Source of the DNA: Myxococcales bacterium
Lineage (GTDB): Bacteria > Myxococcota_A > Polyangia > Haliangiales > Haliangiaceae
Direction of reading: 5' to 3'
DNA length: 26,424 nucleotides
Assembly: GCA_947483555.1 (NCBI GenBank)
Contig: CANKMW010000015.1
Coordinates: 1 to 26,424, forward strand
Position 1 is the stretch's first letter; the number at the start of each line of letters is the position of its first letter. Below are positions 3,715 to 26,408 of this stretch, one piece after another. The notes under the pieces are model-generated. The model was not told the DNA's origin and ran no database searches. It saw only the letters and a program-made list of their open reading frames with translations. The position numbers were made by a program, and so were the translations under genes.

Positions 3715-3822
3715 CGGTGTACGCGGGCTGCGCAGCCGTTCCGGGACCTGCACATCGGCGCGGCGCAGGTAGGCGGAACTCCGTGATCGCCGCGCGGCAT
3801 CACGCTTGCTGGAATCTTCCAG

Positions 3823-6800
3823 GTGGCCTGGACGCGCTCTCTCCTGCTCGCGCTGGCCGCGCTCGGGCTGGCGGCGTGCGATCTGGGCTCGTTCGATCCG
3901 AGCGACGGCGGCATCCCGGTCCAGGATCAGACCACCTGCGCCGCCAGCTGTCACGGCTCCGACGGCGTCGCGGCGCCGCCGCGCGATACCTCGGGCGGCA
4001 CCGATCCGGCGACGACCGGCGTCGGTGCGCACCGCGCGCACCTCGAAACCTCGTCGTGGCACAAGCGCCTGGAGTGCAGCACCTGCCATGTGGTGCCCGA
4101 GGAGATCGGTGCGGCCGGACACCTCGACACCGCGTTGCCCGCCGAGCTCACGTTCGGTGGCCTCGGCGAGAACAGCGCCTGGAGCGGCACCTCGTGCACC
4201 AGCTACTGCCACGGCGCCGCGCTCACCGGCGGCGCGACGACCGAGCCGGTGTGGATCCAGAACGCGAGCACGCCGAGCGACTGCGGCTCGTGCCACGGCG
4301 CGCCGCCGCCGGCGCCACACCCGCAGGATGGTGAGTGCGCCACCTGCCACCCGACGATGAACCCGGGCGGCGGCCTCGAGATCGCGTACCCGGAGTTGCA
4401 CATCGATGGCCACCTCGACGTCGTCAACGCCGCCGCCTGCGATAGCTGCCACGGCGCGGCCGGCGATCCGGCGCCACCGCGCGACACCACCGGCGGCACG
4501 GCGACCGCGGCGCGCGGCGTCGGCGCCCACCAGGTCCACCTCGGTAGCTCGTCGTGGCACGCGCAGCTCGATTGCACGCAGTGTCACCGCGTGCCGGCGG
4601 GCATCTCGGATCTCGGCCACATCGACACGCCGCTGCCGGCCGAGATCTCGTTCGGCACGCTGGCCGGGAACGGAACCTGGAACGGCACCTCGTGCGCCGG
4701 CTCGTACTGCCACGGCGCGACCTTGACCGGCGGCAACCGGCGCACGCCGGAGTGGACGCGCGTCGACGGCAGCCAGAGCCAGTGCAGCTCGTGCCACGGC
4801 GCGCCGCCGCCGCCGCCGCACCCGACCAACAACAACTGCGGCACCTGTCACCAGACCATGGCGCCGGGCGGCGGCATGGTGATCGCGTACCCGGCGCTGC
4901 ACATCGACGGCAACGTCGACGTGATCGGCGGCCAGGCCTGCGACGCCTGCCACGGCGCCGCCGGCAACCCGGCGCCGCCGCGCGACACCACCGGTGGCAC
5001 CTCGACCACGCTGCGCACCGTCGGTGCCCACCGCCGCCACCTCGACGCCTCGACGTGGCGCAAGGACCTCGCCTGCGTCGAGTGCCACCGCGTGCCGGGC
5101 GCGACCGCCTCGATCGGCCACCTGGACACGCCGGCGCCCGCCGAGATCACGTTCGGCGCGCTGGCCGGCACCGCGAGCTGGAACGGCAACAGCTGCGCCA
5201 ACACCTACTGCCATGGCGCCACCCTGGCCGGCGGCACGGCGGTGAATCCGGTGTGGACCCAGGTCGACGGCGCGCAGGGGCAGTGCGGCTCGTGTCACGG
5301 CACCCCGCCGCCGCCGCCCCACCCGGTCGACCCCGACTGCGGCGCCTGCCACGCGACGATGACCGCCGGTCTGGGCCTGGTGATCACCGATCCGGCCCGC
5401 CACATCGACGGCAACCTCGACGTCACCGGCGATCAGGCCTGCGATGCGTGCCACGGCTCGGGCGGCGTCGCCGCGCCGCCGCGCGACAACGCCGGCAACA
5501 CCGCGACCACCGCGCGCGGCGTCGGCGCGCACCGCGCCCATCTCGGCGCCGGCGCCTGGTCGGCGACCATCGCCTGCACCGATTGCCATCGCGTCCCCGG
5601 GGCGGTCAGCGCGGTCGGCCACGTCGACACGCCGCTGCCAGCCGAGGTCCGGTTCAGCGCCCGCGCCGGGACCGCGACCCAGTGGAACGGATCGCGCTGC
5701 TCCAACAACTACTGCCACGGCGCCACGCTCGGCGGCGGCACCACCACGGCGCCGATCTGGAACCAGGTCGGCAGCGGCCAGGCGGCGTGCGGATCGTGCC
5801 ACGGCCGGCCGCCGCCGCCGCCGCATCCGGCGCAGGGCGATTGCGGGACGTGTCACGACACCATGACGCCCGGCAACAACACGACGATCACCGCGCCAGC
5901 CCGCCACATCGACGGCAACCTCGACGTCACCACCAACCAGGCCTGCGACGCGTGTCATGGCTCCGGCGGCGTGTCGGCCCCACCCGACGACACCGCCGGC
6001 AACAACAGCACCGCCGCGCGCGGCGTCGGCGCGCACCGGGCGCATCTCGGCACCTCGACGTGGCACCAGCAGGTCACCTGTACGCAGTGTCATCGGGTGC
6101 CGACCGGCGTGACCTCGGTCGGCCACACCGACACGCCGCTGCCCGCCGAGCTCACGTTCAGCGCGCTGGCCGCGGGCACGACCTGGAACGGGACCACCTG
6201 CGGCACCAGCTACTGCCACGGCGCGACGCTGGCCGCCGGTGGCACCGCGACGGCGCCGCTGTGGACGCGGGTCGATGGCACCCAGGCCGCCTGCACCGCC
6301 TGCCACGGCGCGCCACCGCCGCCGCCGCACCCGAACGATAGCAACTGCCAGGGCTGCCACGCCCCGGTCGCCGGGCCGGGCCTGACCATCGCCACCCCGG
6401 CGCTGCACATCGACGGCACGCTGCAGGTGACCAGCATCCACTCGGCGGGTTGGGCGCAGCCGACCCAGCACGGCACCGCGTTCAACGCGCAGGGACCGTC
6501 GAGCTGCGCCACCGCCAGCTGTCACGGCGTCGCGCTCACCGGCGGGGCCTCGAACGTGTCGTGCAACGGTTGCCACACCGGCTGGCAGACCACCTGCGTC
6601 TTCTGCCACGGCGGGACGGACAACGCGACCGGGGCGCCGCCCGAGAGCGTGGCCGGCCTCACCGCCGTCGCCGATCGTCACGTCGGGGGCCACACCGCGC
6701 ACGTCGCCGCCTCGACGACCCACGCCGCCTACGCCTGCAGCGCCTGTCACGTCACGCCGTCGAACGCGCTGAGCGCCGGCCACGTCGACGGCGTCGCCAA

Positions 6801-7197
6801 CGCCGAGGTGCGCTACTCGACGATGAACGCCGCCGCTACCTACAACGTGACCACCGCCGGCTGCGCCACGCTCTACTGCCACGGCAACGGCCGCACCAGC
6901 GGTGGCCTCGCGACCTGGACCTCGACCACCAACCTCGGCTGCGCCTCGTGTCACAACGATGGCGGCAATCCGCAGCTCATGTCCGGCGATCACAAGAAGC
7001 ACATCGCCGACGAGAACATGGCCTGCACCGAGTGCCACCAGACCGTGGTCAACGCCGCCGCGCAGATCATCGCCCCCGCCCTGCACGTCAACGGCCTCAA
7101 GGAAGTGAGGATGGCGGTCGGCGGCACCTGGAACCCGGCCAATCGCTCGTGCTCGGGCCTCCCCGGCGGCGCCTGCCACGGCACCAAGACCTGGTGA
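3823..7197 (+). CDS. Giant multiheme c-type cytochrome lipoprotein of 1124 aa with ~32 heme motifs. Five tandem ~167-aa modules carry paired CX4CH...CXXCH motifs of the Geobacter type (TIGR01904-like), followed by a distinct C-terminal domain with ~7 hemes.
   Basis: GTG start. The lipoprotein signal MAWTRSLLLALAALGLAAC has the lipobox L-A-A-C. Each module repeats CxxCH, CxxCH, CX4CH (CAGSYCH, CANTYCH, CSNNYCH, CGTSYCH; CX3CH CTSYCH in module 1), CxxCH, PPPPPHP, CxxCH. The C-terminal part adds CATASCH, CNGCH, CVFCH, CSACH, CATLYCH, CASCH and CTECH. The opposite-strand ORF 3385-7977 is Ala/Gly/Arg-rich junk. Confidence 0.9.
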   Translation: MAWTRSLLLALAALGLAACDLGSFDPSDGGIPVQDQTTCAASCHGSDGVAAPPRDTSGGTDPATTGVGAHRAHLETSSWHKRLECSTCHVVPEEIGAAGHLDTALPAELTFGGLGENSAWSGTSCTSYCHGAALTGGATTEPVWIQNASTPSDCGSCHGAPPPAPHPQDGECATCHPTMNPGGGLEIAYPELHIDGHLDVVNAAACDSCHGAAGDPAPPRDTTGGTATAARGVGAHQVHLGSSSWHAQLDCTQCHRVPAGISDLGHIDTPLPAEISFGTLAGNGTWNGTSCAGSYCHGATLTGGNRRTPEWTRVDGSQSQCSSCHGAPPPPPHPTNNNCGTCHQTMAPGGGMVIAYPALHIDGNVDVIGGQACDACHGAAGNPAPPRDTTGGTSTTLRTVGAHRRHLDASTWRKDLACVECHRVPGATASIGHLDTPAPAEITFGALAGTASWNGNSCANTYCHGATLAGGTAVNPVWTQVDGAQGQCGSCHGTPPPPPHPVDPDCGACHATMTAGLGLVITDPARHIDGNLDVTGDQACDACHGSGGVAAPPRDNAGNTATTARGVGAHRAHLGAGAWSATIACTDCHRVPGAVSAVGHVDTPLPAEVRFSARAGTATQWNGSRCSNNYCHGATLGGGTTTAPIWNQVGSGQAACGSCHGRPPPPPHPAQGDCGTCHDTMTPGNNTTITAPARHIDGNLDVTTNQACDACHGSGGVSAPPDDTAGNNSTAARGVGAHRAHLGTSTWHQQVTCTQCHRVPTGVTSVGHTDTPLPAELTFSALAAGTTWNGTTCGTSYCHGATLAAGGTATAPLWTRVDGTQAACTACHGAPPPPPHPNDSNCQGCHAPVAGPGLTIATPALHIDGTLQVTSIHSAGWAQPTQHGTAFNAQGPSSCATASCHGVALTGGASNVSCNGCHTGWQTTCVFCHGGTDNATGAPPESVAGLTAVADRHVGGHTAHVAASTTHAAYACSACHVTPSNALSAGHVDGVANAEVRYSTMNAAATYNVTTAGCATLYCHGNGRTSGGLATWTSTTNLGCASCHNDGGNPQLMSGDHKKHIADENMACTECHQTVVNAAAQIIAPALHVNGLKEVRMAVGGTWNPANRSCSGLPGGACHGTKTW
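3937..6432 (+). repeat. Five direct tandem repeats of ~501 bp (167 codons) inside the lipoprotein cytochrome gene. Each encodes a 5-heme module.
   Basis: Module starts at the conserved motif CD(A/S)CHG fall at aa 39, 206, 373, 540 and 708. That is a period of 167-168 aa, about 501 bp. Protein-level identity between units is high, so substantial DNA-level identity is expected. Confidence 0.8.
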
Positions 7198-7248
7198 TCG
7201 CGGCGGCGACCGCAACTCGGCGGGCTGCGCCGTGTCACGCTGGAGGTG

Positions 7249-8205
7249 ATGACGGGCCATGATCGCCTCCGGACGCTCACCGCCGGCGCGGTGGTCGCCG
7301 CCGCGTGCTCCGGGCCCGGCGGCGGCGGTGGCGAGCGCCTGATGGCCGAGATCCCGCCCGGGCCGCGGCCCGCGCCCGCGGCGCTGGTGGAGCCGGCCGC
7401 CGCCGGCCCGTTCTCGCCGGCGGCCTACGCGCGACACGTGCTGGCGTTGCGCGAGCGGCTCGCTGCCGCCGGTCACGGCGAGCTCAACATCCGCATCGAC
7501 GAGCCGTTCGTGGTGGTCGGTGACGATGAACCCGCCGTGCTGGCGCGGCGCGCGCAGACGGTGCGCTGGGCGGTCGAGCGGCTGGAGCGCGACTTCTTCG
7601 CGCAGCGACCGACCCGGATCCTGGACGTGTACCTGTTCTCCACCGCGGCCACCTACCAGCGCGGCGTGCGCGCGCTGACCGGCGCCGCGCCCGGCACGCC
7701 GTACGGGTTCTACTCGAGCGAGCACGACGGCCTGTTCATGAACATCGCCACCGGCGGCGGCACGCTGGTGCACGAGCTCGTGCACCCCTACGTCGAGGCC
7801 GACTTTCCCGGCGCGCCGGCGTGGCTCAACGAAGGGCTCGGCTCGCTGTTCGAGCAGAGCTCCGACGACGACGGCCACATCATCGGCCTCACCAACTGGC
7901 GCCTCGCCGGTCTCCAGCAGGCGATCCGCGCCGGCACGGTGCCCAGCTTCCGCGCGCTGACCAAGATGAGCGAGCACGCGTTCTACGTCCAGGACCGGGG
8001 CACCAACTACGCCCAGGCCCGCTACCTCCTCTACTACCTGCAGCAGGAGGGCAAGCTGGTCGACTTCTACCGCCGGTTCCGCGCCGCGCGCGCCGCCGAT
8101 CCGACCGGCTACGGCACCCTGGTCACGGCGCTCGGCGAGGCCGACATGGCGGGATTCCAGCGCCGCTGGGCGGCCTGGGTGCTGGAGCTGCGGTTCGACG
8201 ATTGA
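7249..8205 (+). CDS. Putative zinc metallopeptidase (HExxH), probable lipoprotein. Alternative GTG start at 7246.
   Basis: GGAGG sits immediately upstream. The N-terminus MTGHDRLRTLTAGAVVAAACSGPGGGGG resembles a lipoprotein signal with Cys followed by a Gly-rich linker. The motif HELVH, followed by NEGLGSLFE about 20 aa later, resembles a gluzincin HExxH...E arrangement. Confidence 0.7.
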   Translation: MTGHDRLRTLTAGAVVAAACSGPGGGGGERLMAEIPPGPRPAPAALVEPAAAGPFSPAAYARHVLALRERLAAAGHGELNIRIDEPFVVVGDDEPAVLARRAQTVRWAVERLERDFFAQRPTRILDVYLFSTAATYQRGVRALTGAAPGTPYGFYSSEHDGLFMNIATGGGTLVHELVHPYVEADFPGAPAWLNEGLGSLFEQSSDDDGHIIGLTNWRLAGLQQAIRAGTVPSFRALTKMSEHAFYVQDRGTNYAQARYLLYYLQQEGKLVDFYRRFRAARAADPTGYGTLVTALGEADMAGFQRRWAAWVLELRFDD

Positions 8206-10974: not shown

Positions 10975-11148
10975 GTCGCACTTATCCCACCCCGGCGCGG
11001 CGCGCGGAAGCACTCGCGTTTTGCCCCGTGCCGCGTCGCGACCGGTGCGTCGCGGGTGTTAGGATGCGATCGCATTCGGCCGGGGCATGTGCCCGCGCTC
11101 GTACCTCGAAGGGGAGGTGCCGCGGCGGGCGCGGCCCCACGAGGGATC

Positions 11149-14100
11149 ATGGCCACCAGCGACTTCGAAACCGCCGCTGCCACCGTCAAGAGTGCGCCGC
11201 ACTCGACCGCCGCCTGGGACGCGATCGAGGAGCTCGCGCGCGAGCACGAGAAACCCGACCACGTGGTCGCCCTCTACCGCGACGTGTTGCAGAAGGGCCT
11301 CGACCCGCAAGTCGTCGAGATGGTCGGCGAACGCGCCGGCGCATTCTGCGACGAATGGTTCGGCGACGACCCCAAGGTCGCCGAGGGCCTGCTGTCCAAG
11401 GTGCTCGAGCTGGCGCCGCAGTCGGAGTCGGCGCTCGGTCGCATGTCGGTGCTCCTGACCCAGAACGAGCGCTGGAACGATCTGCTCCGCCTCTACGACC
11501 GCGCGCTGACCGGCGTCAAGGACCCCGGCCGCCGCATCAAGCTGCTGCGCGAGGCGTCGCAGCTGGCCAAGGACGTCGCCAATCAACCCGAGCAGGCGAT
11601 CGCCTACCTGCAACGCCTGCTGCCGCTGACTCCGGACGACGCTCAGCTCGGACAGTCGCTCGAGCGGCTCCTCGAGCGCTACGAGCGCTGGGTCGATCTG
11701 ATCGCGCTGTGGGAGAGCCGCCTGGAGCGGCAGAGCAAGGCCGAGCGCGAGAAGAGCCGGGCCCGCATCGCGGCGTGCTGGCTCGACAACTTGCAGGACT
11801 CGGCCAAGGCGCTGGCCTCGGTGCGTCCGCTGCTGGCCGAGTCGGACGACGACAAGGAGGCGTGCACGCTGCTCGAGCGCATCATCGAGGCCGGCCACAC
11901 GCCAGCCAAGGAGCGCGAGGCGGCGCTCGACATCCTGCGCGCCCACTACGACGCGACCGCCCGGCCGCGCGAGGTGATCCGGGTCCTCGAGCGCGTGATC
12001 GAGCGCGATCCGGCGGGCAGCCAGGCGCTGCGCGAGGAGGCCGGCGCCCGGCTGGCCGAGCTCGACGACGACAGCGCGGCGATGGACCACTATGCCGCCT
12101 TGCTCGCCCTGACCCCCGACTCGTCGGTGACCCAGGAGAAGTTGCGGCAGCTGGCGCAGCGCTCGAACGGGTATGCGCGCTACGCGGCCGGGGTGGCCAC
12201 CGCCGCCGAGCACGCCATCATGCCGGCGCGCAAGGTCGAGCTGCTGTCCGAAGCCGCCCGCACCCGCCTCGATCTGCTCGACGATCCGGCGGGCGCCATC
12301 GAGCTGTACCAGCGCGCGCTCGAGCTGCCCGGTGCGGGCGAGAAGGAGCAACTGCACGTCTGCCGGCGGCTGTCGGAGCTGTACTCGCGGGTCGATCGAC
12401 CCCGCGAACGCTTCTCGATCCTCGAGCGGCTGGCGGCCCTCGAGCCGTCGGCGTCCACGCGCCGCGGCGTGATCGGCGAGGCCGCCCGCCTGGCCGAGAG
12501 CCTCGGCGAGACCGACAAGGCGCTCGGCCTGTGGCGGCAGCGCATCGATCGCGATCCCGACGACCTCGGCGCCCTCGACTCCGCCATCCTCCTGCTCGAG
12601 ACCTCGGCCCGCTGGACCGAGCTGGTGACGGCGCTCGACCAGCGCGCCGGCAAGAACGTGTCGGCGGCCCAGAAGCGCGCCGACCTCACGCGCATCGCGG
12701 TCGTGTTCCGCGATCCCGTCCGCGACGTGGAGCGCGCCATCGCCGCCTGGCAGCGGGTGCAGACCGAGTTCGGCGACGACGCCGAGACCGTCGGCGCGCT
12801 CACCGACCTGCTGGCCGAGGTGTCGCGCTGGCGCGAGCTCGCCGATCTGCTCGAGCGCACCAGCGGTCGCGATGTCGCCCGCACCACGCATCGCCTCAAC
12901 CGCCTGGGCGAAGCGCTGGCCACCCATCTCGGTGAGCCGGCCCGCGCCCTGGCCGCCTTTCGCGCCGCGCTGGCGATCGATCCGGTCAACGATCAGGCTC
13001 GGGCCGGACTGCTGACGCTGCTCGAGGTCGCCGCGTTTCGTAAGCCCGCCGCCGACGCGCTGGCGACCAGCTATCGCGAGAACCAGGACTGGGCCGGGTT
13101 CCTCAAGCTGTTGCCGGCTCGGCTCGCCGATGCCCCCGACGATCGGACGCGGCTCGCCCTCATGCGCGAGGCGGCCTACATCCAGAGCAACAACACCAAC
13201 GATCCGGCCGGCGCGCTGAACAGCCTGGCGATGGCGTTTCCGCTCGCGCCCCGCGATGGCGTGATGGAGGGCCAGATCCTCGACCTGGCCGCTCGCACCG
13301 GCAACCCCGGCGCGGCGGCGGCGTCGAGCGCCCTCGAGGCGGCGATCCGTGCGCTCGCCGACGATCCCGACGAGGCCGCGCGCATGCGCCTGGTGCGCGC
13401 CGCCTTGCTCGAGGACAGCCTGGGCGACGAAGCCGCCGCGCTCGACGAGTACGTGACCGTGTTCCGGCACGACCGCGGCAACCAGCTCGCGGCCACCGCG
13501 GTGGTCCGGCTGGCGCCCCGGCGCGGCAAGTGGGCCGACGCCGCCGCCGCGTTGCTCGGCTACGCGGCCGCCAAGGAGCGCCTCGACGAGGGGCTGTACG
13601 CCAGCTACGAGCAGGCCGGGGCCGCGGATGCCGGCGCGATCGACGCGTCGGCCGCGGCGCTCGAGCAGGTCGCGGACGCCAGCGGCCTGCCGCCGGCGGT
13701 GGCGGCGCTGGTGTGGTCGCGGATCGCGATGTGGCACCGCGGCCGGCGTGATGATGGGCGCGCCGCGGTCGCCGCGTTCCGCCGCTCGCTCGCCGCCGGC
13801 GGCGATCGAGCCGACACGTTGCGCGCGGTGGCCGAGCTGGTGCGTCCGGACGGGCCGAGCGCGGCCTTGCTCGACGTGCTGCGCCGGCTGTCCGATGCCG
13901 ATCCCCGCGATCTCGACGTGCTGGTCGAGGCCGCCGACACCGCCAGCCGGCTCGGAGACCGCGAGGCCTCGGTCACCATCCTCGGCCAGGTGCTGGGCCG
14001 GGCCACCGGCGCGTGGCGCGGCTCGGCGGCCGTGCAGTCGTCACGTCCCGCCGAGGCGGTGGTGCGCTGGGCCATCGACGGCCTGGTCGAGCTGCATCGG

Positions 14101-17100
14101 GTCGCCGGCCGGCCGCGGGTCGCGCTCGATCTGCTCACCGAGTCGGCGCGCCTGCCGTTCGACGTCGCCACCCGCCGTGATCTGCGGCTGCGCGCGGCGG
14201 CGATGGCGTCCGGAGACCTGCGCGACAACGGCGCGGCGATCGACATGTATCGCGGCGTGCTCGCCGAGAGCCCCGGCGATCTCGAGATCATCGGTCGGCT
14301 GGGCGCGCTGCTCGACGTCGAGCGTCGCCACGCCGAGCTGCTCGGCCTGCGCCACGTCCAGCTCGGGCTCGAGGTCGAGCCGGCCAGCCGCCTCGACCTG
14401 CGTCTCGACATCGCGCGGCTGGTCGGGGTCGTCGAGGAGACCGGCGGTCGCTACGAGGCCCTGATCGCCAACCTCGCCGATCAACCCGGTCACGACGCAT
14501 CGATCGATGCCGCCCACAGCTTCCTGGCCGGCAAGGGCCAGCACAAGGCGCTCGCCGACCTGCTCGAGGAGCAGTCCGGCAAGCTCGAGGCCGGCGGCGA
14601 TGTCGCCAAGGCCGCGCGCCTGTGGGCCCGCTTCGCCGTGGTCGCCGAGCGCGACTCGCGCGAGATCGATCGCGCGATCGCCGGCCATCGCCGGGTCGTC
14701 ACCCTGGCGCCGACCCAGGAGTCGTTCCGGGCCCTGGCCCGGTTGCAGCTCGATCGCGGTCAGCCGGCGGCGGCGGTGCCGTGGTTCGAGAGCCTGCTGG
14801 CCACGGTGACGGGCGCCGAGCGGCAGACGATCGTCGATCAGCTCGCCCGCGCCCACATCGCGGCCAAGCAGGACGATCGGGCCATCGCCGCGATCGAGAG
14901 CGCGCTCGACGACCGCGAGCCGGCGCTCGAGCTGCGGCTCTTGCTCGCCGAGCTGTACCGCAAGGCCGAGCAGTGGGAGCCGCTGGCTCGCCACCTCACC
15001 CGCTCGCTGTCGTGGTTCGGCGACGACAAGGGGCCCGAGCTGGCCCGCGAGGCCGCCGCGATCTACACCGACAAGCTCGGTGCGCCGGCCAAGGCCATCC
15101 CGGCGCTCGAGAAGGCGCTGGCGCTGGATCCGACCGACAAGGACATGCGAGCCCAACTCGCCGTCGGGCTGCGCGCCGCCGGCCGGCTGGTCGAAGCCCG
15201 CGCCATCCTCGCCGAGCTGATCGAGGGCTTCGGTCGCCGCCGCTCGCCGGAGCGGGCCCAGCTCCACGTCGAGCTGGCCAAGGTCGCCCATGCCGAAGGC
15301 AAGGTCGACGAGGCGCTGACCGAGATGGAGGCGGCGTCCAAGATGGACGTCAACAACGCGCGCGTCCAGCGCGAGCTCGCCGAGCTGTGTCGCGCCGCCG
15401 GACAGGTCGACAAGGCGGAGCGCACCTACCGGGCCCTGCTCCTCATCGTCCGCCGCCAGCCGCCCGGCGACGACGAGGCCGCCGTCGGTCAGAGCGAGGT
15501 GCTGTTCGAGCTGTCGCGGCTGGCCGGCTCGCATGGCGACGCCACCCAGGCCAAGGAGCTGCTCGAGAGCGCGGTCGATGCCGCGGTGCAGTCCGACGTC
15601 GAGGTCCGGCGCCTGCGCCGCAGCCTGATCGCCCACAACGAGGCCGAGACGCTCATGCGCGTGCTCGAGCTGCGCCTCGCGGCCACCAGCGAGGCCGCCA
15701 GCCAGGCCCGGCTGTACGCCGACATGGCCGACGTGCTCGATGGCTCGCTCGCGCGCTCGGCCGATGCGCTCGATGCGATCATCAAGGCCATCAACCACGC
15801 CCCGTGGCGGCTCGACCTGCACGACAAGGCCTGGCTCCTGGCCCGCAAGTCGGGCGAGACCAAGAAGCTGGTCGAGGCGGTCGAGACCGTGGTCGATCGG
15901 CTGCGTCGCAAGGACGATCCACCGCTGGTGGCGTCGCTGTTGCTGCGCGCCGGTGAGGCGCTCGAGAACGATGCCAACGACCTGCCGGCGGCCGCGGCGC
16001 TGTACCGGCGCGTCGAGATGCTCGGCGAACGCCTGGCCGAGGCGTACTACGCCCAGGCCCGAGTCGCCGGCGCGCTCGGCGACGACGAGCAGCAGGCCCG
16101 CGCGCTCGACAACATGCTCAAGCTCGCCAGCAGCGACGGCGGCGACGCCTCGCCGGCGCAGACCGACGCGCTGTACCGGCTGGCGGAGATCTTCATCGCC
16201 ACCCCGGCGCGTCGCGCCCAGGGCATCGATCTGATCGAGCGCGCCTTCGCGGCCGAGCCGCGCTGGGCCCAGGCCGGGCGCGTGCTGCGCGGCGCATCGT
16301 CGACCGATGCCAGCGACGCCCGCGTGATGACGCTCTACGAGCGGGTGGCGCGCAACGGTGGCGACAGCGAGCTGTTGCTCGACTTTCTCGACAAGCGGGC
16401 GCGGCTCGCCGACGCGACCCCGGCCCAGGTCCGCGAGGCGGTCGATCTGGCCGTCGAGATGGCCCACCACGAGCGCGCCGAAGCGCTGCTGGAGCGCGCC
16501 GTCGTGGCGGCTCGCGACTCCGCCGATGGCGTCGGGGGCGCGGTGTGGGCGGTCCTCGCGCTCACCGATCGTCGCCTCGCCGGCGGCGATCTCGCCGCCG
16601 CCCGCGAGCTGGTCTACGAGATCATCGGCGTCGCCGAGCCGGCCGAGATGGATCCGCTGATCGGGCGGGTGGCCGCCCGCGCGGCGCAGGAGCGCGCTGG
16701 CCACGGTCTGGCCGCCGAGATGTACGAGCTGCTCCGCGAGCGCGCACCGGCGGATCGCGCGGTGTGGGAGCCGCTGGTCGCCCTCTACCGCGACATGGGT
16801 GATGGTGACCGGCTGGCGAGCGTGATCTCGTCGACGCTCCCCAACCTCACCGATCCCGGCGAGCGCAACGCCCTGCGCCGTGCCCACGCCGAGTACTTGA
16901 TCGAGTCACTGAAGCGGCCGCACGACGCCGCCGACGTGCTGCGCGACGCGCTGCGCGACGATCCCGACGATCTCGGCGCCGCCGTGCTGCTGGAGAAGAC
17001 GTTGCGCGCGCTCGGTGACGACGACGGGCTGACCGAGTTCTTGTGGGCCCGCTTCGACGACGCCGTCGCTCGCAACAGCCGCGAATCGACGCTCGACGTG

Positions 17101-18915
17101 GCGTCTCGCCTCGGGCCGCTGGTCGAGTCGACGGGCGGCAACGCGGCCAAGGTCTACCGCACGGCGCTCGGCGTCGCTCCCGACGATCGCGAGCTGCTGC
17201 GTCGCGTCGTGGTGTCGCTCACCGCCGACGACGATCCGCGCGAGTCGGCGGCGTTGATGGAGCGGCTGCTGGCGGTCGAGACCCCGGAGCAGGCGCCGGC
17301 GCTGTGCTGGCGTCTGGCCAGCGCCTACGAGGCCGCCGAGGACTGGCCCGGCGTCCAACGCACCCTGGCCGCCGCGCACAAGGCGGCGCCCGACGACGCC
17401 GCGATCCACGACCGCCTCGAGCAGTTCTACCGTGACACCCAGCAATGGGTCGAGCTGGCCCAGTTGATGATCAGCGACGCCGCCCGCACCACCGACGTCG
17501 CGGTCGCGGTCGATCGCCTGCGCGAGGCCGCGGCGGTGTACTCGGGGGTGCTCGGCCAGCCGCTGGCCGCCGCCGAGGCGCTGCGGGCCGCCCGCGCTCG
17601 CCAGCCCGAGACGCCGGCGCTGTCGGCCGAGCTGGCGGCCGCGCTGGCCGCCGGTGGCGATCAACGCGGCGCGGTGACCTCGCTGAGCGACGCGCTGGAG
17701 GGGCCCGATGGTCCCGACAGCGCGCCGGTCAAGGGCACCGCGCGCGTCGACCTCTTGCTGCTGCGGGCCAGCCTGCGCCAGCAACTCGGCGACGAGGACG
17801 CGGCGGTCATCGATCTCGACGACGCCTACCAGCTCGATCGCGGCCGGGCCGCCGCCGCGCTGGGCGACGGCCTCGAGCGCATGCGGGGGCGGGCCGAAGC
17901 GGCCGGCGACATGAGCAGCGAACGCACCGCGACCCTGCGGCTGGCCCAGCTGCTCACCGAGCACGGCGAGGTCGAGCGCGCACGGGATCTGCTGGTCGGG
18001 TGGATCGAGCGCATGCCCAGCGACCCCGATCCGCTCTATCTGCTGCGCGACATGGACGCCGGCATCGAGCACTGGGACGGCGTCATCGCCGCGTGCACCC
18101 GCCTGGCCTACATCGTCGAGGGCGAGCCGCAGGTGCAGGCGGCGCTCGACGTCACCGATGCGTCGGCGCGCGCCGGCAAGCCGGCCGATGCGATCGCGGT
18201 GCTCGAGATGGTCCACCTGGCCCAGCCCGGCGCCGACGCGATCCGCCTCAAGCTGCGCGAGCAGTACGAGGCGGCCGGCGCCCACCGCGAGCTGGCGGTC
18301 ATCCTGATGGCCGACGCCGACCACGGCACCGACACCCAGGCACGGTTCGCGGCCTACAAGCGGGCCGCCGAGCTGTTCCTGGCCGCCGGCGATGCGTCGG
18401 CGGCGGCGGTCCCGGCCGGCAAGGCCGCCGAGCTGGCGCCCGACGATCACGTCACCGCCATGCTGCTGGTCGACGTGTTGATCGGCTCCGGCCGCACCGA
18501 GGAGGCGGCGACCGCGCTCGAGACCGCGATCGCGGCCCAGAAGAAGCGCACGCCCGAGCTGGCCATGATGCAGCAGCGGATGGGGCGGGTCGCCGGCATG
18601 CTCGGCGACCGTGACGGCCAGCTCGGCTGGCTCAAGAAGGCGTTCGACGTCGATCGCAAGAGCGGCGAGATCGCCGCCGAGCTGGCTCAGCTCGCGACCG
18701 AGATCGGCGACTACGAGCTGGCCCTCAAGCCGTTGCGTGCGATCACGCTGATGGACAATCCGTTGCCGATCACCCGCCCGATGGCGCTGCTCTGGGAAGC
18801 GAAGATCGAGCACGCGCGTGGCAACCGCGCCAAGGCCGAGCTGTGGGCCAAGAAGGCGCTGCGCGAGGATCCGCACTTCTCCGAGGCCCAGCAGTTCCTC
18901 GACGAGCTGCCCTGA
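11149..18915 (+). CDS. Giant cytoplasmic TPR/alpha-solenoid repeat protein of 2588 aa, hypothetical.
   Basis: ATG at 11149 is preceded by GAGGGA. No signal peptide. The whole length is helical-repeat-like (Leu/Ala/Glu/Arg/Asp-rich with recurring A-x-x-x-Y/L...P-D/N hairpin motifs, e.g. [56 protein letters not shown]). The track ORF start at 10348 overlaps the convergent rluA gene and is not real. Three long antisense ORFs inside this gene are Arg/Gly-rich artefacts. Confidence 0.85.
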
Positions 18916-18955: not shown

Positions 18956-19321
18956 TCAGCGCGGCCGCAAGGTCCGCGCGATCAGCTCGCGGCGGCCGGT
19001 GACGCCGAGCTTGCGGTACACGCTCGCGAGCTGGTTGGCGACCGTGCGGCGCGAGGTGGCGCGCCGACGCGCGACCTCGGCGTTGCTGGCGCCGCCGAGC
19101 ACCATGGCGGTGACCTCGCGCTCGGCAGGGGTCAGGGCGTCGAGCTCGGCGTGCTCGACAAGGGCGATCGCGAACCCGACCACCACCAGGTCCGCGATCG
19201 TGCCGGCCCGGAGCTGGTCCGGAACCGCCAGCCCGCGCCGGGTGCGGCTCACGAGGTCCCGCGCGCTGACCTCGGACTGGCTCGGTGCCAGGCAGGGACA
19301 CTCGCCGACTGTCGAGATCAC
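18956..19321 (-). CDS. Small LuxR/GerE-family helix-turn-helix transcriptional regulator of 121 aa with no receiver or ligand domain.
   Basis: The C-terminal 60 aa [52 protein letters not shown] is a canonical LuxR-type HTH. The GTG start at 19321 overlaps the HNH gene stop by 4 nt (GTGA). Confidence 0.68.
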
Positions 19322-20712
19322 GATCGCCGCGGCGAGCGGGCCGGAGCCAGTTGCGAGGTTGCGCGGAGCGCGGCCGGCAGCAGCACGTCGAGCGCCACGT
19401 CACCCATGTGGGCGACCGCGCGGGCAACCGCGGCCTGGGCTTCGTGCGGTCGGAAGCCCAGCGTGACCAAGGCGGTGCGAGCGTCGGCGATGACCTGCGC
19501 CGACGACGCTCGCGCCGGTGCCGGCGCCGCGGGTGCAGGTGCCGGTGCCGACGCGCGTGCCGGTGGCGGTGGCGGTGCCGACGCGCTCGCCGGTGCCGGT
19601 GCCGGTGCCGGTGGTTCCGGCGGCGGCGGCGCACCGTAGGGCCGGCCGTCGGCGTGGGTCACACGCAGCGCACCGGGCACGCCGTCGATGCGGATCGTTC
19701 CGTGGTGAAGCAGGAGATGATGTGATGAGCAGAGGCAAGCGAGGTTCATCGGCTGGTTGTCGCCACCGTCGGCGCGGTGCCTGACGTGGTGCACGTCAAC
19801 AAAACGCGATGAGGCACAGCCAGGGATTGTGCAGCGGTGGTGGTCGCGGGCCAGCACCATGCGGCGGACCGCCGCCGGGATCGTGCGCTGAGCCAGCGCC
19901 GGTGCCGCGCCGTCGACGCGATCAAGCTCGATCGCGTCACAGCGCGCGCTCTCGATGGCTGCCGGCGACACCTCGATCGGTCGCCCGACCGCGTCCTGCC
20001 AGCCGCGCTTGCAGTCGACGCACACGGTGAGCGCAATCTGGTGGGGCGGCGTGTTGTCGGCCGCGGCGCCGTCGCCGCCGAGGACGCCGCGGCACGCCAC
20101 CGCCATGAACTCCGAGTCGGTCATCGCCTGACCGACCTCGGCCTCGAGCTTGCGCCGCGCCTCGAGGAACAGCGCGTACGCCTCGGGCAGGAGTTGCAGG
20201 CGCACCGCGCGCGGCTCGAGCTGCGGATCCGGCCGCTGGTCGGGATGATCGCCGGGCTTGCGGCCGCGCACGCAGTGCTCGATCTCGCGCGCGGTCAGGC
20301 CGTCGATCGCGTCGAGCCACGCGGTCTCGGTGTCCGCCGTCGCCACCCGCGTGAGCTCGCGCACCGCCGAGAAGGTGACGGTGCCGGCGGTCAGCGCACG
20401 GGCGATCTCCGGCAACGCCACCAGCGCGGTCGCGACTCGCATGCGGTCGCGACCGGTCGTCGGCGCATAGCCCAGCACGCGCTCGAGGTACTCGTCGAAG
20501 CTGCCGTAGCCGAGGTGGCGGTGAACACCAGCGGCCTTCGCCGCCACCAGCAGCCGCGCCTCGTCGGCATCGAGGGTCGCCCGCCGCCGCGCCAGACGTC
20601 GCACCTGGCGATCGATCTCGCGCCACGCGGCGCCCACGTGGGTGCCCTCGTCGCCGCCCGCATCACGACCGCCGCCGCCACCATCTGCACCACTCGCTTG
20701 CTGGTCGAACAT
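19318..20712 (-). CDS. HNH endonuclease with an N-terminal DUF222-like domain, a Pro-Ala low-complexity linker and a RuvA-domain-III-like C-terminal tail.
   Basis: The HNH motif reads [51 protein letters not shown]. The N-terminal region resembles DUF222 as seen in actinobacterial and myxobacterial HNH proteins. The C-terminus, after [33 protein letters not shown], reads [20 protein letters not shown]...ALRA. That is similar to the RuvA C-terminal domain ALVALGYKPQEASRMV.... Confidence 0.85.
19511..19630 (-). repeat. Imperfect GC-rich hexanucleotide simple repeat (GCCGGT/GCCGGC)n. On the minus strand it encodes the PAPAPA linker of the HNH protein.
   Basis: Visible runs ggtgccggtgccggtgccggtgg and gccggtggcggtggcggtgccg on the plus strand. 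Confidence 0.6.
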
Positions 20713-21299
20713 GTCGCACGCCTCCCCGACGCGTGGGCCACTCGTTCACGCGCGTGTTCATCTCTATCACGGGGATTTTCGCCCTCCATGCGTGCCCGTA
20801 GCGGGCGTCAAAGGCGGTCGGACTGATTCTCCACGGCGACACCGTCGGACGCGCTCCACGCGCATCCTGACGCGCCAGGCGCACGACCTATCCGACGTTC
20901 TCCATCCCGACCTCGCTGCACGCGCCGAGGACGTCAAGCGAAACCGACGCGCCGTGGCGATTCCTCGACGGTACGCGCCCGGGATCGTCGACGACGGCCA
21001 CCGAGAAACCGCGGACGCCGGGAGACCGGTCGCGTCGAAGGTGCGTTCACCGCGAGACGACCGGGCCGCGCCGCGGACTCCGTGCCCGGCCCCGGCGGCG
21101 ACGCGTTCCACGACCTACCGGCGCGGCGGGCACTGGCCGTCCGCAGCGATCAATCGCCCCGTGTCGCCCGCGGAGCTTCGTGCATCCGCGCCGCGACCGC
21201 CGGATCCTGATGCTCACGCTCTGAGACAAGCGCCGCAGCGTGTTCGACGGGTTGCCGGGCTGGCGCTTGGTCGCCCTGCAAGTCGCGGAACTGCTCCCG

Positions 21300-23383: not shown

Positions 23384-25216
23384 ATGTCGCTTCGTCTCGC
23401 CCGGTCCGGGGCTGTCGCGCTGGTCTCGGTGGCGGCGTGTTCGTTCGCACCGTCCGGCGAGGTCGCGCCCGATGACGACGGCGGGGTCGACGACGGCGGC
23501 AACCGGGTGCTGGTGCTGCGCGACGACACGGCGGCGGACTTCGCGATCGTCGGCACGCTCGCCGACGCGCTGGTCATCGAGCCGTGGGGCGCGCTGGCAC
23601 CGGCGGCCTACCACGTCGGCGGGCTGCTCGCCTTCGCCGCCAACGACGAGCGCTTCGGCGAGCCCGACGAGGCGACCTGGACCAGCGTCACCAGTGGCTC
23701 ACCAGCCGGCGCCGGGGTGTGGACCCGGCCTCTGGTCGGCGATCCGATCGGCGTCGGTCTCGACTCCGGCGACAGCTGGACCTACTGGGCCGAGGGCGAG
23801 GTCTGGCTCGACGCCGGCGACACCAGCTTTCTGGTCGACGCCGATGACGCCGGGTTCATCGAGATCGCGCCGCCCGGCGGCGACTACACCCGGGTCGTCA
23901 ACGCCCGCCTGGGTGTCGGCAGCGGTTCGTTCACCGCCGCGGCCGCGGGATGGTTTCCGATCCGGCTCGCCGCGGTCGAGGGGGTCGGTGGCTCGCGCTT
24001 CGACGTGCAGCTGTTCGTCAACGGCAGCATGACGCCCGAGCCGCTGGCGTCGCCGCGGCTGCGCGCGCGGGTCGACCACATGCGGGGCATGATGCTGGCC
24101 GGCTGGGACAACTCGCTGCTCCAGGGCCGGCCCGAACACACCCTGTCTCAGGACCCGCTGGTCGACGCCGACTTCGGCGCCGGCACCCCGGTCGGGGTCG
24201 GCATCGGCTCCGCCGACTTCTGGTCGCTGCGCTGGGCCGGGCAGTTCTACGTCACCACGCCCGGCACCTACCGGCTCGACGTCGAGGCCGACGACGGCCA
24301 CCGGCTCTACGTCGGTTCCTACCTGGTCAGCGATCTGCTGGTCGGGTCGAACGCCAGCCGCATGATCGACGTCGATCTGGGCGGCGGCTGGAACGACGTG
24401 GTCCTCGATCTCAACGAGAACACCGGCAACGCCCGCGCGCGCCTGCGCGTCGTCAGCGGCCCCGAGCCCGGGCTCGACCGCGAGCTGCCGGCGTCGCGGT
24501 TGCGCCCGCTCGAGCCGCGCGGCGAACGCCTCGAGACCGGTGCCGACGCGACCGATCGTCCGGCAGCCGACAACGATCCGGCCGGCGGCGCCGTGTCGGC
24601 GGTCGCGGTCGGCGGCTTCGTCGGCGCGACCGTGACCTCGGTCGACGTCATGGTCGGCGTCAATCACAGCCGGATCGGCGACCTGCAGATCCGCCTGGTC
24701 CATCCCGGCGGCAACGAGGTGCTGCTGCGCAACAACTCGGACGCCGGCGGCAGCGGCAGCCGCACGCTGCGCTTCACGACCGAGAGCTTCGATGGCACGC
24801 CGGCGAGCGGCGCGTGGCGCCTGCGCGTCACCGACACGGTGCAAGGGAACGCCGGCACCCTCACCGACTACCAGCTCGCCGTCCACATGGGCGGTGGCCC
24901 CGAACAGGTCGCCCGGGTCGCCTCGTACACCTCGCTGGTCCGCGATCTCGGCGCCGACGTGACCGCGATCGACGCGCTGCGCTTTGCCGCCCGGCTACCG
25001 GCCGGCGCCGGGGTCGCGGTGCGGCTGCGGGCCTGCGATGCGCCCGAGCAGTGCGCGACCGCACCGTGGTCGGAGCCGCTCACCGAGGGCGGCGGCGCGG
25101 CCCCCGGGCTGCCGCCGTCACGCTACGTGCAGTACCGCGTCGAGCTGACCAGCGATGGCGAGCGCGATCCCGAGCTCGACTGGCTCGAGCTCTCGTACCG
25201 GATCCCCGCCACCTGA
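23384..25216 (+). CDS. Lipoprotein with two PA14 domains and a proprotein-convertase P-domain (pre-peptidase C-terminal type). No catalytic domain.
   Basis: The signal MSLRLARSGAVALVSVAACSF has lipobox V-A-A-C. PA14-like segments are WTYWAEGEVWLDAGDTSFLVDADDAGFIEI and FWSLRWAGQFYVTTPGTYRLDVEADDGHRLYVGSYLVSD. The P-domain signature is NHSRIGDLQIRLVHPGGNEVLL...GAWRLRVTDTVQGNAGTLTDYQLAVH. Confidence 0.8.
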   Translation: MSLRLARSGAVALVSVAACSFAPSGEVAPDDDGGVDDGGNRVLVLRDDTAADFAIVGTLADALVIEPWGALAPAAYHVGGLLAFAANDERFGEPDEATWTSVTSGSPAGAGVWTRPLVGDPIGVGLDSGDSWTYWAEGEVWLDAGDTSFLVDADDAGFIEIAPPGGDYTRVVNARLGVGSGSFTAAAAGWFPIRLAAVEGVGGSRFDVQLFVNGSMTPEPLASPRLRARVDHMRGMMLAGWDNSLLQGRPEHTLSQDPLVDADFGAGTPVGVGIGSADFWSLRWAGQFYVTTPGTYRLDVEADDGHRLYVGSYLVSDLLVGSNASRMIDVDLGGGWNDVVLDLNENTGNARARLRVVSGPEPGLDRELPASRLRPLEPRGERLETGADATDRPAADNDPAGGAVSAVAVGGFVGATVTSVDVMVGVNHSRIGDLQIRLVHPGGNEVLLRNNSDAGGSGSRTLRFTTESFDGTPASGAWRLRVTDTVQGNAGTLTDYQLAVHMGGGPEQVARVASYTSLVRDLGADVTAIDALRFAARLPAGAGVAVRLRACDAPEQCATAPWSEPLTEGGGAAPGLPPSRYVQYRVELTSDGERDPELDWLELSYRIPAT

Positions 25217-25258: not shown

Positions 25259-25535
25259 TCGATCCGCACGCCGGGCGAACACTTCGCGATTGAGATCGGC
25301 GCGCGCGACGAGCAAGGTGGAACTCGGACGGGTTGTCCGGGAAACGGACGATATGCGGATCGGCCCCTCAGGCAGGCGAGCACCAGCCGCCTGAGGTGAT
25401 GGTGCAGGTGGGCGGGACGGGGGAGCAGGTGGGGGCGGGCTGAGGGGCCGACAGCGGGGGGGCATGTGGGTGTTCGCCAGGGCGCCGGATGGCGTATCCT
25501 CTGGTGCGCGCATGTCCAACGAGAAAGAGAAGACC

Positions 25536-26408
25536 ATGTTCCTGCAGATGGCTCCTCCGGTGGTCCGGAAGGCCTCTGCCGGTGGGGATGCCGTCCTGCT
25601 CGCGATCTATCCACCGGGCGCGGGCATGGGGCGGCGGTTCGGGTTGACCAAGGCCGAGCACTTCGTCGGGCGGCTCGAAGAGCTCGACATCCCGCTCGAG
25701 GGTGAGGGCCTGTCGCGCAAGCATGCGCGGATCTTCCGCGACGACAGCGGCTGGCAGGTCGAGGACCTCGGTTCCACCAACGGGACCCACGTCAACGACG
25801 CCAAGGTCGACCGGATCCACCTGAACGACGGCGACCTGGTGCGGTTCGGCGTCGCCATCTGCAAGTTCCTCTCCGGCGACAACATCGAGGCCCAGTACCA
25901 CGAAGAGATCTACCGGTTGTCGATCATGGACGGCCTGACCAGCGTCCACAACAAGCGCTATTTCCTCGAGTTCCTCGAGCGCGAGCTGGCGGCCGCGGTG
26001 CGCCAGCACGCGCCCCTGTCGCTGATCATGATCGACATCGATCACTTCAAGAAGATCAACGACACCCATGGCCACCTGACCGGCGACGCCGCGCTCAAGG
26101 AGATGTGCCGTCGCCTGCGGCCCCGGATCCGCAACACCGATCTGCTGGCCCGCTACGGCGGCGAGGAGTTCGCGGTGATCCTGCCCGCCACCGACCGCGA
26201 GGGTGCCCTGCAGTTCGCCGAGGTGCTGCGCGCGCTGGTCGAGAGCGAGCCGTTTCCACACGACGAGCTCAAGGTCGCCTGCACGATCAGCCTCGGGGTC
26301 GCCGCGATCGATCACGCCCAGCCCGGACGCCCCGACGATCTCATCAAGCGCGCCGACGCCAACCTCTACGAGGCCAAGCGCTCGGGCCGCAACCGCGCCG
26401 TCGGCTGA
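25536..26408 (+). CDS. FHA-domain diguanylate cyclase (FHA-GGDEF). Alternative in-frame starts at 25512 (ATG) and 25464.
   Basis: The FHA core reads GRRFGLTKAEHFVGRLEELDIPLEGEGLSRKHARIFRDDSGWQVEDLGSTNGTHVNDAKV. The GGDEF domain has the active-site RYGGEEF, with DHFKKINDTHGH and the inhibitory-site-type RxxD context. The purine-rich gagaaagagaag upstream of the ATG at 25536 acts as a Shine-Dalgarno sequence. Confidence 0.85.
   Translation: MFLQMAPPVVRKASAGGDAVLLAIYPPGAGMGRRFGLTKAEHFVGRLEELDIPLEGEGLSRKHARIFRDDSGWQVEDLGSTNGTHVNDAKVDRIHLNDGDLVRFGVAICKFLSGDNIEAQYHEEIYRLSIMDGLTSVHNKRYFLEFLERELAAAVRQHAPLSLIMIDIDHFKKINDTHGHLTGDAALKEMCRRLRPRIRNTDLLARYGGEEFAVILPATDREGALQFAEVLRALVESEPFPHDELKVACTISLGVAAIDHAQPGRPDDLIKRADANLYEAKRSGRNRAVG

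Follow-up and report, generated by a model that had tools for sequence, protein, structure and literature searches.

To our knowledge, domain III of RuvA (D3) is known only as an adaptor with which RuvA recruits and regulates RuvB, and the only role known for it is autonomous docking on RuvB, an AAA+ motor, at its presensor-1 beta-hairpin/alpha3 surface. In Escherichia coli RuvA (MG1655 record) this domain comprises residues 155-203 and is preceded by a flexible linker of 15 residues. The contact between D3 and RuvB is hydrophobic (PMC9477746; PMC10272136), two RuvA D3 domains sit on adjacent RuvB subunits (PMC9477746), and when RuvB is missing, D3 packs on domain II of the neighbour (PMC10071043). 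The exchanges L167A and L170A in the first helix of domain III of E. coli RuvA lead to a loss of RuvB function in vivo, with junction binding unaffected (PMC2628435). Also relevant here are the HNH nucleases of the DUF222/13E12 type, whose mycobacterial genes are LexA/DNA-damage induced, >400-fold over-represented at inversion breakpoints and hot spots of homologous recombination (PMC3381160; PMC13157036). Here we describe a gene of a Myxococcales bacterium (Haliangiaceae) located at positions 19318-20712 on the minus strand of a DNA stretch of 26,424 nucleotides (assembly GCA_947483555.1, contig CANKMW010000015.1, positions 1 to 26,424), which is called the window in the following. The gene encodes a putative HNH nuclease of the DUF222 type that carries a homolog of RuvA domain III at its C-terminus.

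The open reading frame (ORF) is complete, as given in the initial annotation, and encodes a protein of 464 aa that has 275 homologs. An AlphaFold2 model of it was built on an alignment of 65 family members and reached a mean predicted local distance difference test (pLDDT) of 87.5. The C-terminal module, a three-helix bundle of residues 404-453 (19354-19503, minus strand), is confirmed as a genuine homolog of RuvA domain III and is not a generic UBA fold. In a search with the whole protein, the Pfam family RuvA_C (PF07499) scores 27.3 bits at residues 407-450, above the gathering cut-off of 24, and it reaches 31.6 bits (E 2.4e-7) when the 62-residue tail is searched alone. Compared as a single sequence against the sequences of the Protein Data Bank (PDB), the tail finds RuvA domain III chains at the first ranks. 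Among 120 homologs listed, 61 have a complete C-terminal module, and in an alignment of 50 non-redundant tail modules RuvA_C matches 49 (best E 6.2e-13), whereas the Pfam UBA models match four, and these weakly (E >= 0.01). With the profile of this alignment, the eight best matches among all PDB sequences are all RuvA, with E-values of 6.4e-9 for D3 of Pseudomonas aeruginosa, 4e-7 for D3 of Salmonella, 5e-6 for E. coli and 0.014 for Thermus thermophilus. From the NCBIfam model TIGR00084 (ruvA) only the C-terminal end aligns, positions 153-201 of 202 to residues 401-449 (17.9 bits, cut-off 85). The Holliday junction-binding RuvA domains I (OB fold) and II (HhH) are therefore not present, and the body of the protein consists of DUF222 and HNH instead.

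The structural comparison leads to the same result. In the full model the tail helices span residues 404-417, 422-436 and 441-453 with pLDDT values of 92-97, and the tail modelled alone reaches a pLDDT of 88. In a Foldseek search against the PDB, the 26 best matches of the tail model are all RuvA domain III, with a root mean square deviation (rmsd) of 0.7-1.2 A and 29-39% identity. Among the top matches are the RuvB-bound D3 fragments 7pbm_H, 1ixs_A and 7x7p_A, which superpose at ~1.2 A. Since these fragments were solved bound to RuvB, an isolated D3 is able to bind RuvB alone. UBA and CUE folds do not come up before rank 29, and these as well as SOUBA folds have a probability of ~0.2 only. 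When the tail model was searched against BFVD, no convincing fold match was obtained. The initial annotation had already noticed that the last ~50 aa resemble RuvA domain III, and it had named two observations that would speak against this, the lack of a significant profile match and a generic UBA-like helix pair without conserved interface residues. Neither of the two was observed, as the profile matches to RuvA domain III are significant and specific and the fold is not that of a generic UBA-like pair, so that the structural part of this earlier interpretation is supported.

The tail is separated from the folded body by a Pro/Ala-rich linker of residues ~355-403 (19504-19650, minus strand), in which 37 of 49 residues are proline or alanine, including the PAPAPAPA spacer that had been pointed out before. 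In the model the segment from ~360 to 400 is disordered, with pLDDT values of 48-63, and among the homologs the linker varies from ~10 to >150 aa in length. Judged from the model, a flexible linker thus precedes the module as it does in RuvA, which is what the initial annotation had proposed.

Those residues that couple RuvA to RuvB are conserved in the tail family as well. L415 corresponds to L167 of E. coli RuvA and is leucine in 96% of the family, and L418 corresponds to L170 and is leucine in 72%, methionine in 10% and alanine in 14%, the latter in one sub-branch. G419 (G171 in RuvA) is conserved in 96%, and at F420 (Y172) an aromatic residue is found in 98%. For E424/A425 (E176/A177) the values are 68% and 88%, and for A448/L449/R450 (A198/L199/R200) they are 92%, 92% and 76%. 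Y172 and L199 are reported to lie in the RuvB-binding patch too (Nishino and co-workers, 2000). The most conserved positions of the tail are those which it has in common with RuvA D3, including the equivalents of L167 and L170.

The zinc-ribbon and HNH nuclease domain covers residues ~228-353 (19654-20031, minus strand). C231, C234, C258, C294, C299, H308, H309, C328, H332 and H336 are invariant in the alignment of 65 members. The catalytic histidine, the metal-binding histidine and the Cys/His zinc site of the beta-beta-alpha-metal core are all present (H309, H336, C294, C299, C328, H332), and the zinc ligands C294/C299/C328 together with H308/H309, H332 and H336 are 100% conserved, and the HNH region, which the initial annotation had called canonical, is intact. 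HNH families of PHROGs match at E 3.7e-9. Pfam HNH (PF01844) reaches 17.7 bits at residues 293-336, slightly under its cut-off of 21.4, and matches 40 of the 65 family members at E<=0.001. The closest HNH structures by fold are TagI, EcoKMcrA and ScoMcrA. From the NCBIfam IscB model, only the HNH segment aligns (model positions 138-240 of 314 to residues 238-340; E 7e-10, 38.5 bits, cut-off 175), and there is no Rfam match; the protein thus does not fall into the IscB/RNA-guided nuclease class, which is marked by a RuvC domain, a PLMP/bridge helix and an omega-RNA. Likewise, a PADLOC search gave only a marginal match to the HNH segment of DpdF, and the gene is therefore not a recognised defence system.

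The N-terminal domain is all-helical, with helices spanning residues 26-212 in the model (20077-20637, minus strand). Its designation as DUF222 holds at the level of the family, as Pfam DUF222 (PF02720) matches 12 of the 65 aligned relatives (best E 4.6e-9), but not for the protein of the window itself, which has no match at E<=10. Membership is thus given by transitive homology only. By fold the domain resembles the helix-turn-helix (HTH) DNA-binding domains of ParB/Spo0J/Noc: the top Foldseek match is the ParB DNA-binding domain in complex with parS (6s6h_A; probability 1.0, TM-score 0.65 on the target, E 0.03), followed by 4umk and 1vz0. Overall, the probabilities of these matches are ~1, but the E-values are 0.03-0.1 and the TM-scores 0.45-0.65 on the target. 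A match of an ad hoc hidden Markov model (HMM) of the tail to residues 68-127 was rejected as homology because Pfam RuvA_C is silent there and the region belongs to the ParB-like HTH fold; the match is due to a shared 'LGY' turn in a helix rich in Ala, Leu and Arg.

The gene belongs to a dispersed chromosomal family that can reach ~20 or more copies in a single metagenome-assembled genome (MAG). In one scan of species-representative genomes, 294 loci with relatives were found, and the following details refer to the best 80 of them. All of these lie in MAGs of Kofleriaceae, Myxococcales or 'Deltaproteobacteria' except for one contig that was binned to Solirubrobacteraceae, and JADJGV01 contributes 21 copies, JACKDR01 18 and JAEUJY01 eight. 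The contig mentioned (L067, DASWSH010000003.1; Actinomycetota) has a copy that is near-identical to the Kofleriaceae copy L065, and an error in binning is a more probable reason for its placement than horizontal transfer. A scan of viral contigs revealed no relatives, and as the BFVD search gave nothing convincing either, the family is not phage-borne.

In all 80 loci the ORF is intact over the body, and the tail is present in 21 of them, with one of 21 loci in JADJGV01 and four of 18 in JACKDR01. In a neighbour-joining tree of the bodies, all major clades contain tail-bearing genes on long branches that diverge deeply, and tail-less genes appear as recent, short-branched bursts beside them. 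The simplest reading of this simple distance tree would be that the tail is ancestral and was repeatedly lost ahead of copy-number expansion. Where the tail is kept, it is under purifying selection at a level similar to that of the catalytic body, as in ten closely related tail-bearing pairs dN/dS is 0.07-0.69 for the tail, 0.11-0.33 for the catalytic body and 0.18-2.3, plus indels, for the linker. Against 1.84 billion representative proteins, the tail profile gives 2,990 matches at E <= 0.001, of which 296 reach E <= 1e-10. The 28 proteins inspected among the best 150 matches are all HNH-family proteins or fragments and none is RuvA, which suggests that the module is a RuvA_C branch of its own that is confined to these nucleases. 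Several of these matches have two or three modules in a row, and among the family members P0116, P0121, P0125, P0129, P0133, P0140 and P0158 the number of tandem RuvA_C-like modules ranges from two to ~five, which parallels the two D3 domains on adjacent RuvB subunits. Two proteins of 361 aa from the 90% cluster of the window protein (P0270, P0271) are ~95% identical over the first ~320 residues and then diverge inside the HNH motif to another C-terminus (NILTACGLCRARHKKH...) that has neither linker nor tail; this switch points to a recent replacement of the 3'-end between close paralogs.

A further property of the family is found at the DNA level. The peptide 'HVG' recurs in the loop between helices 2 and 3 of the tail, within linkers, at the C-termini of tail-less members and close to the N-terminus. 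Its codons are strongly skewed: GTG accounts for 57 of 64 valine codons, compared with 46% in the background, and the rare GGA for 25 of 52 glycine codons, compared with 11%. The DNA beneath it is the palindrome CCCACGTGGG, of which the 108 kb of family ORFs contain 72 copies, whereas 100 shuffles that keep the dinucleotide composition have 0.18 copies on average and 2 at most, a ~400-fold enrichment; in 642 kb of flanks there are 13 copies, with 1.5 expected. The flanking positions are complementary in 74 of 85 sites at +-1 and in 59 of 85 at +-2, where ~23 would be expected by chance, and because of this symmetry the palindromes are 14-16 bp long. CCACGTGG sites lie in the same reading frame in 91 of 95 cases, the palindrome is nearly always read in the frame for H-V-G, the flank variants (T..A, CG..CG, GG..CC, CC..GG, GA..TC) follow gene clades and genomes, and in 18 of 25 tail-bearing loci a palindrome with <=1 mismatch sits exactly at the RuvA_C helix 2-3 loop. 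The 'HVG' signature of the tail is thus largely a constraint on the DNA, and for this reason the tail looks more like a canonical D3 than the signature alone would make it. A role of 'HVG' at the protein level, such as metal binding, was rejected as the main explanation because of the codon skew and the symmetric covariation of the flanks.

In the gene of the window, a perfect CCCACGTGGG palindrome is found at 20633-20642 in codons 24-27 (T-H-V-G), within the extended near-palindrome GCACCCAC/GTGGGCGC. A degenerate one, reading CCCACATGGG on the minus strand, lies at 19403-19412 in the RuvA_C helix 2-3 loop (H435-M436-G437). Both sites were recorded without strand assignment, and the palindromes of the window taken alone are not significant, the evidence being family-wide. 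The parS site is TGTTNCACGTGAAACA and shares the CACGTG centre and the length with the family palindrome (PMC7022226). On the basis of this resemblance we propose as a hypothesis that the palindrome is bound by the ParB-like N-domain of the protein itself, for which it may be a site of binding or cleavage.

Among the related loci L002-L084, NNCCCACGTGGGNN palindromes with symmetric lineage-specific flanks are found, for example in L008 (4074, 5199), L021 (5355) and L059 (2341-5558). In L059 (2341-3555, 5558) and L021 (5538, 6209), the lineage-specific palindrome in question also forms clusters outside of genes, adjacent to family members. The cluster of L059 comprises seven copies of CGGCCCACGTGGGCC(G) with similar flanking sequence, 80-500 bp apart, and may thus be a repeat of a larger unit or an array of sites. 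Moreover, the long basic C-terminal repeat arrays of the 'ASHVGRRKAKA' type in P0071, P0074, P0085 and P0090 are tandem arrays of the DNA palindrome.

The upstream region of the gene is conserved, too. Conservation with recurring motifs was seen in ~60 of the 80 paralog loci. In the window, the non-coding 5' region that goes along with the gene, a promoter-like leader, covers 20713-21014 (minus strand). It contains TTTCGCTTGACG (20932-20943), an extended -10-like element GAAAATCCCCGTGATAGAGA (20761-20780) and the Shine-Dalgarno sequence GGAGG (20721-20725). Across L002-L084, in paralogs with <=45% protein identity, TTTCGCTTGACG recurs ~220 nt before the ATG and the extended -10-like motif CGAAAAT..C.GTGATAGAG ~45 nt ahead of it, and several loci have operator-like palindromes TGTCCGG-N4-6-CCGGACA upstream. 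Rfam has no family for any part of the window, the leader included, and a promoter and terminator scan gave nothing useful. Compared with P0002, which is 80% identical and the closest relative compared at the DNA level, only the DNA from 21014 to 19311 is shared, that is, the ORF and 304 bp upstream. This unit of ~1.7 kb has sharp ends and unrelated flanks, and no terminal repeats like those of insertion sequences were seen at its boundaries.

None of the neighbouring genes in the window belongs to DNA repair, and this is also true of three related loci. On the minus strand at 18956-19321, a LuxR/GerE-type HTH regulator follows, whose GTG start overlaps the stop codon of the HNH gene (GTGA), but whose true start may be further downstream. 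As this ORF lies outside the shared DNA unit, the HNH unit appears to abut it or to be inserted directly upstream of it. Convergent with these two genes is a giant ORF of ~2,600 aa (11098-18915, plus strand) consisting largely of tetratricopeptide (TPR) repeats. Further off, all on the plus strand, are a multihaem c-type cytochrome with c7/c3/MtrC-like domains (83-2077), a secreted-looking protein with PA14 and proprotein-convertase P-domains (23384-25216) and an FHA-GGDEF diguanylate cyclase (25464-26408). An MA peptidase and a methyltransferase are also encoded in the window, and the large ORFs 1690-3714 (plus strand) and 3385-7977 (minus strand) have no Pfam match.

What could such a protein do? 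We give a probability of about 0.5 to the best-supported reading, namely that it is an HTH-guided HNH nuclease which is flexibly tethered to a RuvB-docking module and couples cleavage to the branch-migration motor. From its conserved residues and its N-terminal fold, the nuclease would be site-directed and looks active. The helical N-domain would bind DNA, probably at the 14-bp palindromes with CACGTG core in the family's own genes, the HNH domain would nick or cut, and the tail would tether the enzyme to RuvB hexamers or recruit RuvB. DNA cleavage might in this way be physically coupled to branch migration at recombination intermediates, at reversed forks or at the loci of the family copies. 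Resolution of junctions, gene conversion among the copies or competition with RuvA could follow from this. A recombination-linked role is plausible by analogy, as the mycobacterial DUF222/13E12 genes are induced by DNA damage and lie at inversion breakpoints.

The initial annotation had considered the gene without its context, namely the multi-copy and mostly tail-less family, the missing link to recombination genes and the palindromes within the ORFs. Several observations weigh against this RuvB-coupled reading. Neither the window nor three related loci have genes for recombination next to the HNH gene. Searches with the three Ruv proteins of E. coli (RuvA, RuvB, RuvC) gave no matches in 770 kb of sampled flanks, a sample that is uninformative on RuvABC genome-wide. 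Moreover, 59 of the 80 loci lack the tail, yet their ORFs are intact, and the tail is therefore dispensable for the basic activity of the family. The likeness of the N-domain to ParB seems to exist at the level of the fold only (E ~0.03), and its sequence profile gave no ParB match among the PDB sequences. Compared with RuvA, helix 2 of the tail is longer by three residues, and A432, H435, G437 and a cysteine at the position of T452 are conserved specifically in the family, so that the tail could have been retargeted; in addition, its hydrophobic positions could be kept for folding alone.

These last points lead to the strongest competitor, according to which the tail derives from RuvA D3 but no longer binds RuvB and is reused for dimerisation, for auto-inhibition on the protein's own DNA-binding domain or for another partner. 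We regard this as possible but clearly less probable than coupling to RuvB. It would be in line with the insertion and the family-specific positions, with a module that forms its own subfamily without RuvA among the inspected best profile matches, with the loss of the tail in most paralogs and with the packing of RuvA D3 against domain II of the neighbour when RuvB is absent (PMC10071043). However, the positions under strongest conservation are exactly those of RuvA D3 with the L167 and L170 equivalents, the tail model and RuvB-bound D3 superpose with ~1.2 A, and much of the 'HVG' signature is a DNA palindrome and not a protein function. The gene context suggests no alternative partner for the tail either, and no conserved neighbours were seen in three related loci. 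A match by chance or composition of a helical tail rich in Ala, Leu and Arg, or a generic UBA-like bundle, was worth considering in a genome of 73% GC (69-77% in the window) with an Ala-rich protein, all the more as the ad hoc tail HMM gave spurious-looking matches on the N-terminal HTH region, RuvA_C itself has a UBA-like fold and weak UBA matches occur in a few tails. The curated Pfam threshold that is passed and the purifying selection on the tail speak against this explanation, and it is effectively refuted by 49 of 50 tails with RuvA_C against four with weak UBA matches and by PDB profile matches down to 6.4e-9 and 26 best folds that are exclusively RuvA.

Another speculative and rather improbable option, the strong version of what the initial annotation had suggested, is that of a dedicated alternative Holliday-junction resolvase, in which an HNH dimer would take over the part of RuvC at junctions bound by RuvAB. 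Resolution of junctions is known from nucleases of the HNH/beta-beta-alpha-Me type, for example T4 endonuclease VII (PMC10956419), and the D3 module would position the nuclease at RuvB motors. Nevertheless, the modelled N-domain resembles a sequence-specific HTH binder of duplex DNA rather than a junction binder, a multi-copy family with mostly tail-less copies is unlike a housekeeping resolvase, and the closest structural relatives of the HNH domain are restriction nucleases of the McrA/TagI type. Evidence for a missing ruvC was not found either, the genomes being covered only by the 770 kb of sampled flanks. Only slightly better, and still unlikely in our view, stands an extension of RuvB coupling to a self-targeting recombination system, in which the ParB-like HTH reads the lineage-specific palindromes in the family's own coding sequences, the HNH domain nicks there, and the D3 tail loads or captures host RuvB, driving gene conversion, deletion and inversion between the copies. 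Such a system would account for the repeated tail losses, the swaps of 3'-ends and the bursts of copies.

The initial annotation had assumed that this domain combination is undescribed. In full-text literature searches, indeed, neither an HNH-RuvA_C nor a DUF222-RuvA fusion was found to be described, and the sole RuvA_C outside of RuvA that came up was an annotation in the genome paper of a Bacillus phage; however, the fusion is already visible as precomputed Pfam matches in public metagenome protein collections. If the fusion is functional, proteins besides RuvA can plug into RuvB, and for the enigmatic HNH nucleases of the DUF222/13E12 type with their many copies there would be a first clue to the mechanism, with the embedded palindromes as the candidate DNA target of the nuclease.

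Compared with known systems, the protein shares parts with several of them. With the HNH domains of McrA, TagI and ScoMcrA as well as those of IscB and Cas9 it has the beta-beta-alpha-metal core with a Cys/His zinc site in common, but it lacks domains that read modifications, a RuvC domain and a guide RNA; Rfam found no match. The best fold matches of its N-domain are the HTH domains of ParB/Spo0J/Noc, parS complexes included, and the palindrome of the family (GCACCCACGTGGGCGC) has with 14-16 bp a similar length and with CACGTG the same centre as the 16-bp parS; in contrast to ParB, there is no similarity at the sequence level, no N-terminal CTPase domain and no ParA partner. The actinobacterial DUF222/'13E12 repeat' family, which has 19 copies in Mycobacterium tuberculosis, resembles the myxobacterial one in the helical N-domain with C-terminal HNH and in its dispersed multi-copy nature. 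The latter differs by its occurrence in Myxococcota and by a very divergent match to Pfam DUF222 (12 of 65); the RuvA_C tail and the CACGTG palindromes within the ORFs were seen here in the myxobacterial members examined. From RuvA itself the protein differs in that D3 is attached to an HTH/HNH nuclease instead of the OB-fold and HhH junction-binding domains, that helix 2 has three additional residues, that a palindrome lies in the helix 2-3 loop, that the module is sometimes present in tandem and that RuvB binding is a prediction. It has in common with RuvA domain III the sequence family, the three-helix fold (rmsd ~1 A), the C-terminal position after a flexible linker and the conservation of the equivalent residues.

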